64,000 nt of DNA. Origin: Eledone cirrhosa. Its lineage: Eukaryota. The stretch lies in contig OZ024743.1 of assembly GCA_964016885.1 (NCBI GenBank), forward strand, positions 88,102,001-88,166,000, read 5' to 3'. Under the pieces are notes generated by a model. It was not told the origin of the DNA. It ran no database searches and saw only the letters and a list, made by a program, of their open reading frames with translations. The position numbers and the translations under genes were made by a program. Shown one piece after another: positions 2,920 to 44,757 of this stretch. Numbering within the stretch: the stretch's first letter is position 1; the number at the start of each line of letters is the position of its first letter.

Positions 2920-3445
2920 CTTTTTAGTCCAGCCAGCGACTTGTAAACTCTGGTACAAACACTACACTTGTGACAATTATTGACACATAGTGCTGGGCCC
3001 ATGGTACCATGTGACGACAAGTGCAGAAAGATCTCCAGATATAAAGCAATGCCTGTGCCGTGAAGCTTTTATAGTGAGCAAAGGCACTGCACAAAGCCAG
3101 TCCCACTCTCTTAACCAAGATGATATTTACCAAAAAGAAAAACAAGTCAACATCATTGGATACCATCAGGGTTGCAGGTGTTATATCAGAGTTTTCCTTC
3201 TCCTATAATTCTGCCTTGACAAAGGCTAAGGGGTCATCTCTCCCGGTGATTTTGGATGGCCATTGACTCTTAAGAGCTCCTTTGCCCTTTGACAGGTTTT
3301 GTTTTTAGTCCTGCAGGATGTCCACAGTCACCCTCCTCACCAAGAAACCTTGGTGGGGTTGCCAGTTTAGTCGCCAACGACCCGACCATGAGAGACAGGT
3401 TGTACTGGGATACATGTTACCAGTAGCACCAACTGGTGACCTGAC
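2920..3445. mobile_element. Dispersed repeat (possibly LINE 5' UTR), second copy at about 14220-14706
   Basis: Shared blocks such as tatatcagag...ccttctccta and tcaccctcctcaccaa...cttggtggggttgcc.gtttagtcgc in both places; family identity not established. Confidence 0.5.
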
Positions 3446-3641
3446 ATAATATATATATATATATTTACACACATATATGTATTAAAAAACACGTGGGAGA
3501 AATATAGGCAACAGAAAACGTGAAAGAAACTGTTACATGAACAATTCACGCTCATCAGCTGTCTTTCTTAGGATCATTAATATGTCTATATATTTATATA
3601 TATGTATGTATATATGTGTGTATATATGTATGCATTATACA

Positions 3642-3708
<67 letters not shown>

Positions 3709-3764
3709 ATATATTATATATAGATATATATATATTTATTATATACACACACACAAATATGGAC

Positions 3765-3812
<48 letters not shown>

Positions 3813-3815
<3 letters not shown>

Positions 3816-4009
3816 CAAAGGAATTGTGGTAAGGAATCAGATGAACCATAACGCACCAGAGAACTCAATACTTAGGGTAGTAGAATGGGAAATAGGAAAA
3901 AGTATGACCCCGACGGTAGAGTTCAAGCCGTTTCGACGGCTATTTCTGAGTCCAGAAATAGCCGTCGAAACGGCTTGAGCTCTGCCGTCGGGGTCATACT
4001 TTTTCCTAT
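3813..4009 (-). mobile_element. Fold-back mini-element in (TA)n with 3' half of a hammerhead; 57-bp arms 3892-3948/3953-4009 plus 80-bp tail
   Basis: Near-perfect inverted repeat containing GAAACGGC-TTGAGCTCT-GCCGTC-GGGG; family copies at 4490, 29409, 44581. Confidence 0.85.
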
Positions 4010-4439
4010 ATATATATATATTAGTATTGGTTAGTATTGGTGCTCTGAAATAGCGATGTATATATGAATGTATGTATAGTATATTTGGCAATATACCGTA
4101 TGTTTAATTAAAAACATTTAGAAGACCATTCGCTATGAGTCCTCGTGACATTCCTTACACGGATGTTCTATTGTTTAGAAAGGTGAAAGATGAACTATTG
4201 CCTACAGAGGCAAACCATTACTTAGGAACGTGAGCTGTAGTTTTTAAAAGGTGCATTGTTAACGATGTAAGAGATATTTACCTACTTACTTACTTACTTA
4301 CTTATTTACTTACTTACCTACTTACTTACTTACTTGGTTACTTACTTACATGCTTACTTACTTACTTACATACTCTAATTATAATTATAACCCTTATTCT
4401 AACCTTAACCCTTATTCTAATTCTAATTCAAATTATAAC

Positions 4440-4489
<50 letters not shown>

Positions 4490-4494
<5 letters not shown>

Positions 4495-4690
4495 AAAAAG
4501 TTTGACGCCGACGGCAGAGCTCAAGCCGTTTCGACGGCTATTTCTGGAAATAGTCCAGAAATAGCCGTCGAAACGGCTTGAGCTCTGCGTCGGGGTCATA
4601 CTATTTCCTATTTCCCATTCTACTACCCTAAGTATTGAGTACTCTGGTGCGTTATGGTCCATCTGGTTCCTTACCACAATTCCTTTGTTA
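4490..4690 (+). mobile_element. Second copy of the same fold-back mini-element, opposite orientation
   Basis: Arms 4490-4548/4554-4611 followed by the tail ...ggttccttaccacaattcctttgtta(TA)n. Confidence 0.85.
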
Positions 4691-4749
4691 TATATATAAT
4701 GTGTGACGTCCGAATGAGTATATTACACCTCCATTTAACTTACTCTCTG

Positions 4750-7168: not shown

Positions 7169-7595
7169 GGTTTAGATTGTATGTGTAGAGACTATACCAT
7201 CCCAGATGTGGGAGCAGTGCTCCATTCTAGGTTTAGATTGTATGTGTAGAGACTATACCATCCCAGATATGGGAGCAGTGCTCCATTCTAGGTTTAGATT
7301 GTATGTGTAGAGACTATACCATCCCAGATGTGGGAGCAGTGCTCCATTCTAGGTTTAGATTGTATGTGTAGAGACTATACCATCCCAGATATGGGAGCAG
7401 TGCTCCATTCTAGGTTTAGATTGTATGTGCAGAGACTATACCATCCCAGATGTGGGAGCAGTGCTCCATTCTAGGTTTAGATTGTATGTGTAGAGACTAT
7501 ACCATCCCAGATATGGGAGCAGTGCTCCATTCTAGGTTTAGATTGTATGTGCAGAGACTATACCATCCCAGATGTGGGAGCAGTGCTCCATTGTA
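7169..7595. repeat. 61-bp minisatellite, about 7 copies
   Basis: ggtttagattgtatgtgtagagactataccatcccagatRtgggagcagtgctccattcta. Confidence 0.95.
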
Positions 7596-12944: not shown

Positions 12945-13051
12945 TATATCAACTAGAAATTGATTGACATATAAATATATCTAAAATAAACATGAAACGT
13001 GATTGTTTCATGTTTATTTTAGATATATTTATATGTCAATCAATTTCTAGT

Positions 13052-13058
<7 letters not shown>
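12945..13058. repeat. Perfect 54-bp-arm inverted repeat, 6-nt loop, abutting (TA)n
   Basis: tatatcaactag...catgaaac GTGATT gtttcatg...ctagttgatata. Confidence 0.95.
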
Positions 13059-13097
<39 letters not shown>

Positions 13098-13182
13098 GGC
13101 TTTTACAGGACTAGAACTGTTTCATTCCAAAGAAATCAAGATGATTTCTTTTGAATGAAACAGTTCTAGTCCTGTAGAAGCC
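13098..13182. repeat. Inverted repeat (about 41-bp arms) containing HHR-like GAAA-CAGT-TC
   Basis: ggcttttacaggactagaactgtttcattccaaagaaatca / tgatttcttttgaatgaaacagttctagtcctgtagaagcc. Confidence 0.9.
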
Positions 13183-13756: not shown

Positions 13757-13770
13757 GTAGAGCAAATATT

Positions 13771-13892
13771 TATTGAAATAACAGATTAAAGTTTAAGCAA
13801 AGAATCGCTGCTTTCACCCTTAACGGGATCTTCTGAGTTTAGGGGGTGAAAGCAGCGCTTCTTTGCTTAAACTTTGATCTGTTATTTCAATA
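13771..13892. repeat. Inverted repeat (about 50-bp arms) next to (TA)n
   Basis: tattgaaataacagattaaagtttaagcaaagaatcgctgctttcaccc / gggtgaaagcagcgcttctttgcttaaactttgatctgttatttcaata. Confidence 0.9.
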
Positions 13893-14178
13893 TATATATA
13901 ACTTTACTTTTAACGGTATCTTATAAACTCGTATAAGCACCAGAAGAAAAGTCATTATTTTGATTCCTCTTGTATTCTACACATGTGGCTTTGAAACCTC
14001 GGGTAGCGCCTTTGTTCCGTGTATGAACATAAATAAACAATATATATATATATCATACACACATATATATATGTGTGTGTGCGCGCGCGTGTATGTAACA
14101 TACAAACATACATACAAACATACATACATACATTCATACAAACATACATTACATACATACATATACACATACACACAC

Positions 14179-21249: not shown

Positions 21250-21319
21250 CGTAAAAGTGATTCTATATATGTAAATTTATATATATATATATATTTACAT
21301 ATATAGAATCACTTTTACG
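21250..21319. repeat. 27-bp-arm palindrome centred on (TA)n
   Basis: cgtaaaagtgattctatatatgtaaat (TA)n atttacatatatagaatcacttttacg. Confidence 0.92.
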
Positions 21320-26839: not shown

Positions 26840-26853
26840 ATTTCATCTTTTTC

Positions 26854-26887
<34 letters not shown>

Positions 26888-27150
26888 GAAAAAGATGAAA
26901 TCGAAAATGCAACTGGAGTTTTTTTAAGAATATGTATTTGTTTCCTTTACCGGTTTCACAGTTCTTATGCTTTTCAAAAGTAGAATTGAGACAGAGGGTT
27001 TGTGGTTTTTCTCGCGAGAACCGGTAAAGGAAACAAATAAATATTCTTAAAAAGACTCCAGTTGCATTTTCGATTTCATCTTTTTTCCTTATACTTTCAC
27101 TCATGTAGGGCATCTCGTATTTTTTTCATTTAAAAAAAAAACCTCATTTT

Positions 27151-27664: not shown

Positions 27665-27697
27665 CGACGTTTCGGGCATAAGCCCTTCCTCAGGTGA
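27665..27697 (-). ncRNA. Minimal type-I hammerhead motif
   Basis: acCTGAGGA-a-GGGC-ttat-GCCC-GAAA-cg-TC-gt; stem I truncated by (TA)n. Confidence 0.65.
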
Positions 27698-27786: not shown

Positions 27787-27969
27787 ATGTGTATATATAT
27801 ATATATATATATACACATACATATATATATACATATATGTAGAAGTTCTATTTAAATTGTTGGGATACAACAAGCAAATATTTTTATAACTGATATAAAG
27901 CACTCAACAATTTAATTGGAGTAAAAATACGATATTAACAAATGGAAACTATATTTATAAAACCATATT

Positions 27970-28034
27970 TATTTCATTATACATATTTCAAGGACACCAA
28001 GTTAAATTATGGTGTGCTTTCATCAGATAAAATA
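27970..28034 (-). ncRNA. Type-I hammerhead ribozyme (mirror copy)
   Basis: Reverse complement of 28049-28113 with one substitution. Confidence 0.8.
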
Positions 28035-28048
28035 TCTGCTCTATATTA

Positions 28049-28113
28049 TATTTTATCTGATGAAAGCACACCATAATTGAACTTGGTGTCCTTGAAATAT
28101 GTATAATGAAATA
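28049..28113 (+). ncRNA. Type-I hammerhead ribozyme
   Basis: Stem I UAUUUUAU/AUGAAAUA; CUGAUGA; stem II AAG..CACCA/UGGUG..CUU; GAAA; UAUGUA; UA cleavage site. Confidence 0.8.
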
Positions 28114-29262
28114 AATATGGTTTTATAAATATAGTTTCCATTTGTTAATATCGTATATATATACATATATATATACATATATATATATACATATATATAC
28201 ACATATATATATATATATACATCTATACATACATATATATATAAACTCGAGTCCGGGAACCTTATAGGCACCCGTTTTACGTGTGTTGTGTTGAGGCAAA
28301 TAACTATGTGTATACTCTGGTAATGTATCTTACATTGTTTCTACTTTAGGCACAAGGCCACCATTACCCAGTGCATTACTGGTACTTTATTTTTAATGTA
28401 TCTTACATTGCCCATTGAGTGCGCTGAGATACAACCGGTACTGGCATTGATAACTATGCTGGGTCCGTCAACCCTTATATATATATATATATACATATAT
28501 ACACTTATACATACATTTCAGTTGATATGAACTTGTGAACCTCACTTCCGGTCATGAAATCTGTGATGTTTATTCCTTATTATTGAGTGTAGTGGTCGAG
28601 GTGGGTGAGTGAATAGGGTCCGTGGGATAAGTTTTCGGGGAGAACGGAAGTGATTGTAGTGGTAGTGGCGATGTGGTACTTGTACTTGTGGTGGTGGTGG
28701 TGGTGGTGGTCATCGTCATAGTGGTGGGGATCGTCGTCATAGTGGCAGTGGTAGTGACTGGGACGGGGGGAGGTAGAGGTGTTCGTTGTAGATGGCAGTG
28801 GCGAAGGTGGGGTTCATGTTTAGATGCGGTAAGTGGTGACGAGGAAATGTTGAGGGTTGGATTAGTGTTTAGGGGGAGATTAATGATGTGGTTGGGTGTA
28901 GGGAGGGTGACGATAAATTTGGTAATGAGGAGTGGTGTAGTTTAGGGGGTGTGTTTGTTAAGTAGGTGCTGGGGTGATGAGGGTGGAGATAGTGGTTAAA
29001 AATTGGGATAGGTGGAGAGGACGGGGAGTATGTTGATATATTTGGTGGTGGGGGTGATTGTAGTAGTTAATACTGATGGTGGTCGAGGGAGGTGTGGGGG
29101 TAGTGGTAGTGGTGGTGGTCGAGGGAGGGATGGTGGTGGTTGGGGGGGGGGGGGTCTAGTGGTAGCAGTAATGGTTTTGATATTATCCCAGGAGTTCCCA
29201 AACGTATTTTATTGCAGAACCCCTGTACACACACACACACATACATATACATATACATGTGG

Positions 29263-29326
<64 letters not shown>

Positions 29327-29408
29327 TTATCCCGGGTTCAATCGGGGGTAACCACAGTAAGTAAGGCACTCAATACAAAGCAGAGTATAAATATTTAATA
29401 TAGAAAGC

Positions 29409-29529
29409 GAAACGGCCGGAGCTCAGCCGTCGGGATCCTGACTCTTTTCCTATTACCCACTCTACTACCCTAAGTATTGAGTACTCTGGTGCGTTATGGT
29501 CCACCTGGTCCCTTACCACACTTCCTTCG

Positions 29530-29532
<3 letters not shown>
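29409..29532 (+). mobile_element. Truncated copy of the 3813/4490/44581 family starting exactly at the HHR GAAA
   Basis: cGAAACGGC-cggagctca-GCCGTC-ggga...tail...ccttcgtta(TA)n. Confidence 0.8.
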
Positions 29533-29887: not shown

Positions 29888-29972
29888 ATAAGGCGCATGT
29901 TCGAGATTATCTCAAACATGACATATATAATTATATATGTCATGTTTGAGATAATCTCGAACATGCGCCTTA

Positions 29973-29973
<1 letters not shown>
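29888..29973. repeat. Perfect 86-bp spacerless palindrome
   Basis: ataaggcgcatgttcgagattatctcaaacatgacatatataa|ttatatatgtcatgtttgagataatctcgaacatgcgccttat. Confidence 0.95.
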
Positions 29974-44580: not shown

Positions 44581-44757
44581 ATAGGAACAAGTAAGACCCC
44601 GACGGCTGAGCTCAAGCCGTTTCGAATTAGCCGTCGAAACGGCTTGAGCTCAGCCGTCGGGGCCTTACTTGTTCCTATTACCCACTCTACTACCCTAAGT
44701 ATTGAGTACTTTGGTGCGGTATGGTCCACCTGGTTCCTTACCACATTTCCTTCGTTA
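44581..44757 (+). mobile_element. Fold-back mini-element (family of 3813/4490)
   Basis: Arms ataggaacaagtaag.ccccgacggctgagctcaagccgtttcga and its reverse complement; same tail; (TA)n-type flanks. Confidence 0.88.

Follow-up and report, generated by a model that had tools for sequence, protein, structure and literature searches.

Short head-to-head copies of a Penelope-like retrotransposon in Eledone cirrhosa meet at a putative transcription start site

Several short palindromes in a 64,000-nt stretch of Eledone cirrhosa contig OZ024743.1 (the window) have their centres beside part of a hammerhead ribozyme, and this raises the question of what sets the position at which the two arms of each palindrome meet. 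An earlier note on this DNA had proposed that nascent cDNA stalls at the ribozyme, snaps back on its stem II and copies itself, leaving a hairpin and a dead ribozyme. The palindromes that it described are present, at 3892-4009, 4490-4611 and 44581-44678, the three centres it quoted match, and their arms differ at 2, 3 and 1 positions, respectively. The half-ribozyme it described is also there, with GAAA-CGGC-loop-GCCG-UC-GGGG present and the 5′ core absent, but the missing core is UUGANAA and not CUGANGA. The copy at 3892-4009 is a real palindrome whose orientation had to be corrected: it lies on the minus strand and has a 79-nt tail at 3813-3891. We number element positions from the predicted cleavage nucleotide (the C of GUC = 0); the relevant features of the window are these.

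3813..3948, minus strand: copy 1, tail-bearing arm, -36 to +99, with the tail at 3813-3891, ending in (TA)n
3949..4009, plus strand: copy 1, tail-less arm, -40 to +20, beginning at the initiator-like A3949
4490..4548, minus strand: copy 2, tail-less arm, +20 to -38
4551..4690, plus strand: copy 2, tail-bearing arm, -41 to +99, with cleavage predicted after C4591
44581..44625, minus strand: copy 3, tail-less arm, +20 to -24, of another subfamily
44624..44757, plus strand: copy 3, tail-bearing arm, -34 to +99; the arms overlap by a 2-nt GA
29408..29532, plus strand: family 1 arm with tail, starting at -23, of a further subfamily
29319..29404, minus strand: family 2 tail, joined head to head to the 29408 arm (a two-family chimera)
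13098..13182, plus strand: family 2 hairpin (canonical CUGAUGA hammerhead family), this copy cut inside the core
13770..13893, minus strand: family 3 hairpin, one of whose arms ends at 13836, the A of TTAGT; position 13835 is G
27927..28156, minus strand: hairpin of a further family in which each arm retains CUGAUGA (at 28026 on the minus strand and 28057 on the plus strand)

In copy 1, G3948 precedes A3949 where read-through copies have T or C, and copy 2 has two extra A residues at 4549-4550. We rejected an assembly artefact because the two arms of a copy are not identical (1-3 changes) and many contigs show the pattern; among contigs from three sequencing runs of one sample, compared with 3780-4720, none spans the region, and they are silent on these junctions. 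The 29409 copy, said to be truncated exactly at GAAA, in fact begins one base further 5′, at 29408, and is fused to the family 2 tail; this chimera, at 29319-29532, could have formed in one event from two templates or by a deletion that joined neighbouring copies. Elsewhere in the window, palindromes with one-sided extensions and no obvious hammerhead core lie at 12945-13058, 26840-26901, 29888-29973 and 21250-21319 and possibly belong to ribozyme-less families, and the minus strand at 27693 holds a minimal hammerhead motif of another family, canonical in form, with CUGAGGA, a short stem II and GAAA.

The family 1 palindromes are short head-to-head insertions of a Hydra-clade Penelope-like retrotransposon (PLE) in (TA)n. 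Each copy reads (TA)n, tail-less arm, junction, tail-bearing arm, 79-nt tail, (TA)n, and TATATATA follows the tail in 61 of 76 parsed copies (99 examined, 23 unparsed), as expected of a (TA)n target. Searching the 3.0-Gb assembly with a 24-nt tail motif gave 32,919 exact matches and with its reversed control 0, so the motif is commoner than chance would give. Walking upstream yielded a unit of ~3.1 kb. Locus L121 combines an inverted 930-nt arm (3243-4174 of that locus) with a 246-nt direct repeat at each end (4172-4417 and 7264-7508), between which lie RT and GIY-YIG coding pieces; it thus has the partial pLTR tandem, the inverted 5′-truncated copy and the one-ended tail that are Hydra-clade features. 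In L067, L086 and L121 a single RT (FDIESYY, MG, YRDD) precedes a C-terminal GIY-YIG endonuclease (VIYQC...AYIG), and stops or frameshifts are present in the ORF-bearing family 1 copies read. The clade assignment was made by comparing protein motifs with the published clade description (Craig et al. 2021, PMC8557442, in the part of its text available to us): we found RVRWR (RWK-type), SDKTG (DKT), CNCPDRSTC (the CxCX5C linker), CNLC (CxxC), CKH (CxH), one C between the GIY and YIG positions, and no CCHH. To that extent the element resembles the Hydra-clade PLEs described there in its RW-motif, DKT, linker, CxxC and CxH, its lack of CCHH, its (TA)n, pLTR and inverted 5′-truncated copy, and its one-ended tail, whereas the tail here is 79 nt (30-40 there), the unit is ~3.1 kb, and the ribozyme has a U3-A8 core with a long stem II. 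We rejected the Neptune clade, since the linker and the absent CCHH fit Hydra, and also a MITE (a single palindromic DNA transposon), given the many junctions, the one-sided tail and the continuity with an RT element. Pfam and PDB sequence searches with family 1 ORF pieces returned no significant match; Atlas neighbours of these pieces score 0.96-0.98, and in one set 31% of members have GIY-YIG. At locus L243, family 2 (that of the 13098 hairpin) is followed by a related ORF that is 55-56% identical to family 1 in the RT; for family 3 no ORF was recovered. (Fragments of RT and GIY-YIG that share 32-45% identity with family 1 lie on the plus strand of the window at 10-1275 and belong to another Penelope-like family; many more such families, at 30-55% protein identity, occur at L002, L014, L053, L116 and L158-L212, often nested in each other's TA runs.)

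Judged by its letters and its in silico fold, the predicted family 1 ribozyme is real and has a U3-A8 core. The core is UUGANAA, with U3 and A8 in 71 of 78 read-through arms and position 7 variable, while the canonical type I core CUGANGA, which the earlier note expected in these arms, appears in 0 of the 78. The three helices of a type I hammerhead are present, the unconstrained fold of a read-through arm being a three-way junction; in a differently cut copy the MFE structure folded stem II only (z -1.07). Genome-wide, the canonical core CTGANGAG plus the start of stem II has 11 matches. The UUGANAA core is followed by GTTCGGCTAT, not by GACGGCTAT. Rfam scans (best 150 of 279 rows, plus a second scan) reported no hammerhead. 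A U3-A8 variant has been published for Schistosoma PLEs (Cervera and de la Pena 2014, PMC4209133), and the available text on those Cercyon hammerheads describes the same core covariation in a PLE pLTR and notes opposite-strand pairs; the motifs there are minimal and lack helix III, whereas here a full stem III is present and the monomer folds in silico. A preprint on retrozymes, available to us in part, also bears on the subject (10.64898/2026.07.22.740005). One family 1 subfamily (L141, L205; 3 of 78 arms) has C3 with A8, a mismatch that may inactivate its ribozyme.

To locate the junctions, we began with 99 of the 100 tail matches listed first for contig 1 (exact matches to the tail, within the first 22 Mb) and dropped two of them, one in a satellite array and one the second half of a tail-to-tail pair, leaving 97; junctions were parsed against natural copies, with seven corrected by eye, and searches that select long copies were left out of the peak statistics. 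In these 97 unbiased insertions, the tail-bearing arm ends 3′ of -28 in 23, at -29 to -43 in 63 and beyond in 11. Of 73 tail-bearing arms that reach the peak, 62 end within the 10 nt from -34 to -43, a rate of ~0.19 per nt as compared with 0.005 on each side (~40-fold). The sharp breakpoint peak predicted by the earlier note is therefore found, and in family 1 it does fall within stem II. Truncation by ribozyme cleavage was rejected, since 3 of the 88 short copies (and one more by eye) end within -1 to +2, and only 3-4 of the 97 tail-bearing arms end at the cleavage site.

An inverted arm is carried by 76 of the 88 short copies, with its outer end at +20 in 57 of the 76, so that both outer ends are fixed (+20 and +99), each joined to TA repeats. 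The longer arm is the tail-bearing one in 28 copies and the tail-less one in 37, with 11 equal (n = 76); at locus L026 the tail-less arm is ~470 nt longer. The commonest end of the longer arm is -40 (15 of 76), followed by -39 (13), and many arms stop a few bases short of -40. Among 34 scored copies there are 27 distinct junction pairs, and subfamily variants are shared by both arms in 29 of the 34 (shuffled mean 8.3, maximum 17), which together indicate that junctions arose repeatedly. The short copies without a 5′ core and the independence of their junctions thus stand as first proposed; the differing centres do reflect separate events, but they consist mostly of element sequence from the longer arm plus a few untemplated bases. 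It is accordingly most improbable that one or more palindromic master elements spread non-autonomously, or that long palindromes collapsed after insertion. Some junctions do recur (about a quarter of 100 listed rows share one) and secondary deletions are common, but neither process accounts for 27 junction types in 34 copies, for one junction type in several subfamilies or for the subfamily's own variants in both arms, and collapse would not halt at one base with an added G in three families.

Does stem II cause the peak? In the fold, the family 1 peak is set 3-4 nt inside the 3′ strand of the inner 7-bp helix, a plausible place for the enzyme to pause, and the loop is retained in part or whole at a few junctions (copy 24; possibly also 10, 66 and 97). 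For cDNA to snap back on stem complementarity, however, the loop and 5′ strand must first be copied, and only 1 of the 76 short inverted copies reaches them; the junctions lie 3′ of the loop, which makes stem II doubtful as the cause because they precede copying of the partner strand. By the time the enzyme reaches the peak it has, moreover, already passed stems I and III and the 9-bp outer part of stem II, and a stall in stem II predicts neither the G at -41 nor the family 2 breaks, upstream of the whole core, that are described below. Nor can a single tail-primed cDNA that snaps back give a longer tail-less arm, as found in 37 of 76 copies. We therefore consider a stall and snap-back on stem II unlikely, while fold-back as such fits most junctions, with 0-4 nt of microhomology.

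Inspection of the bases at the peak points elsewhere. In family 1 the most frequent end, A-40, lies in TTAGTC or TCAGTC, 31 nt below a TATA-like TATTTAT or TATTTAA. The consensus spacing from TATA box to Pol II initiator is ~30 nt. Directly before A-40, G at -41 has 5,420 matches and A at -41 has 890; at ends distant from the peak, the G:A ratio is 12:17 (Fisher p 4e-8 against the peak). None of the 78 read-through arms has G at -41. Of 30 G loci inspected by eye, 13 are ambiguous, in that the G could come from C:G pairing in the fold-back, and keeping just the 17 that the other arm cannot explain still gives Fisher p 3e-5; beyond the G, no sequence is common to the 30. The base that follows arm end CTGGACT in 100 listed rows (by eye, some loci counted on both strands) is C in 36, G in 32, A in 28 and T in 4, so C is not dominant. 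Separately, long A or T runs occur at the junction just beyond -40 at L150, L203, L285, L305 and L311, possibly by slippage on the TTT at -43 to -41 or by tailing of the cDNA end.

The same arrangement recurs in family 2, which has a canonical core, a short stem II and 31,535 motif matches. Here the distance from TATAAATA down to the A of YYAG is 30 nt in 11 of the 14 read-through copies and 29-37 nt across all of them, so that both families have a TATA-like box ~30 nt above a YYA+1 initiator (30-31 nt). Family 2 junctions fall at that A, upstream of an intact CUGAUGA core: 9,056 strand matches hold both cores around a short junction (the pattern demands both cores and so measures abundance, not proportion), 20 of 22 head-to-head pairs among 100 listed matches have their GAAA motifs 23-59 nt apart (by hand), and none of 100 arms listed runs two bases past the YYAG A (by eye). 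The window copy at 13098, to which the earlier note ascribed the family 1 geometry, is indeed cut inside CUGAUGA, but family 2 commonly keeps the whole core; with a peak upstream of an intact core in that family, and CUGAUGA kept in both arms at 27927-28156, a dead ribozyme is not the general outcome. (A degenerate family 2 motif also sits in a larger repeat, found again and again on contig 1 with near-identical flanks, at L223, L227, L228, L229, L235 and L244.) Family 3 arms end at the A of TTAGT; a TATA box is absent at -30 in this family, no clear ribozyme core is seen, and the loop at its commonest junction, 1 nt, is tighter than a simple hairpin allows. The feature common to the families is the initiator-like A, not a helix.

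We favour, with a probability of about 0.65, the reading that the junction cluster marks the capped start of a sense RNA initiated in the pLTR, where cDNA would run off, fold back and be resolved against a second cDNA. Pol II would start at A-40, inside the stem II sequence, and the resulting family 1 RNA, which would lack the 5′ core, could not self-cleave in cis. The endonuclease would nick both strands of (TA)n, and each end would prime reverse transcription, at +99 and at +20, both of which have TA microhomology; two cDNAs are needed because the outer ends are fixed and either arm may be the longer. Each cDNA would run just 60-140 nt to the RNA 5′ end and would often add a C opposite the cap. 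One cDNA end would then fold back, paired over 1-4 nt of microhomology and leaving a loop of 3-6 nt, and make the sense strand, which would anneal to the other cDNA, and repair would leave the palindrome. Arms that run past -43, a minority, would be explained by read-through RNA or by a jump into the 3′ pLTR, and would restore promoter and ribozyme; in two ORF-bearing copies the 5′ repeats extend beyond -40, which fits either source alike. Several points weigh against this reading. The start site is deduced from motifs and the extra G. That G could be enriched by the fold-back itself if this depends on C:G pairing, and reverse transcriptase may extend a cDNA by C whether or not the RNA is capped. 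C is not dominant beyond CTGGACT, many arms stop short of -40, and family 3 lacks the TATA box. Finally, all three family sites resemble 3′ splice sites (YAG).

That last likeness suggests that the RNA 5′ end might be made by processing, through cleavage or through aberrant splicing at a YAG acceptor, with the extra base an ordinary terminal transfer. Each of the three sites is a YAG preceded by a stretch that is rich in pyrimidines or resembles a branch site, and an intron of Drosophila virilis Penelope ends at the 5′ edge of helix I (PMC4209133, available text). An acceptor, however, predicts ends after the AG, at -38, and the mode is the A at -40; no exon sequence is common upstream of the G in the 30 loci, and the TATA spacing of 30-31 nt is kept in two families. 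Processing therefore has little probability in our estimate. We give still less to self-priming of an antisense RNA template, as published for head-to-head palindromes of PLEs (Arkhipova et al. 2013, PMC3846280, as far as available to us), which would also explain intron retention: the junction falls on a sense-strand initiator with a sense-strand extra G, and each outer end has a constant position at a sense-strand priming site comparable to those of Anolis Poseidon PAc in vitro (Frangieh et al. 2024, PMC11167929, available text).

Several elements of the capped-start reading have precedents, here cited from the available parts of each source. In Adineta vaga, head-to-head Penelope palindromes were read as self-priming, a TATA box and initiator were noted in a pLTR, and an antisense template was favoured from few copies, whereas thousands of junctions here point to the 5′ end of a sense RNA (PMC3846280); promoters inside pLTRs are described in PMC2377424 as well. 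For another PLE, PAc, two internal RT start sites bound the tail in vitro, both target strands are extended and uncleaved RNA serves as template (PMC11167929); those start sites lack target homology, unlike the two here with their TA microhomology, and inverted junctions are not described in that text. An untemplated 5′ G of full-length L1 and SVA has been ascribed to cap copying (PMC3287187), and the short cDNA proposed here would likewise gain an extra C on running off a capped 5′ end. Inverted truncated copies and tails of PLEs (PMC8557442) and their self-priming (PMC3846280) are thus already published, but the text of PMC8557442 available to us describes no breakpoint peak, and we found neither a junction peak at a start site nor an extra G in the PLE literature, on which subscription papers and supplements may bear. 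The start-site peak and extra G are, then, apparently unreported in PLEs.

A further and more tentative proposal concerns the fate of these cDNAs. Retroviral minus-strand strong-stop DNA is a short cDNA that runs off at the capped 5′ end of its RNA. PLE cDNA may be similar: both strands would prime near the capped pLTR 5′ end, run off the cap and have to jump to the 3′ pLTR, and failed jumps would fold back as the commonest product. The two systems would differ in that nicked target DNA, not a tRNA, primes here and the product is an integrated palindrome, with strand transfer putative. Genomic palindromes would then record start site and cap, and would argue for a sense template.

The origin of the tandem and inverted repeats of PLEs has been stated to be unresolved (PMC8557442, available text). 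If the peak is the capped start site, a sense template is favoured and two cDNAs explain the head-to-head geometry; genome sequence alone then maps a promoter for each family, and the mechanism is open to a direct test in vitro. If the strong-stop-like proposal is true, the palindromes, which number tens of thousands in the genome, pin down start site and cap to the single base. The capped-start reading also suggests that the family 1 ribozyme may act solely on read-through RNA, since a transcript from the element's own promoter would begin within the ribozyme.
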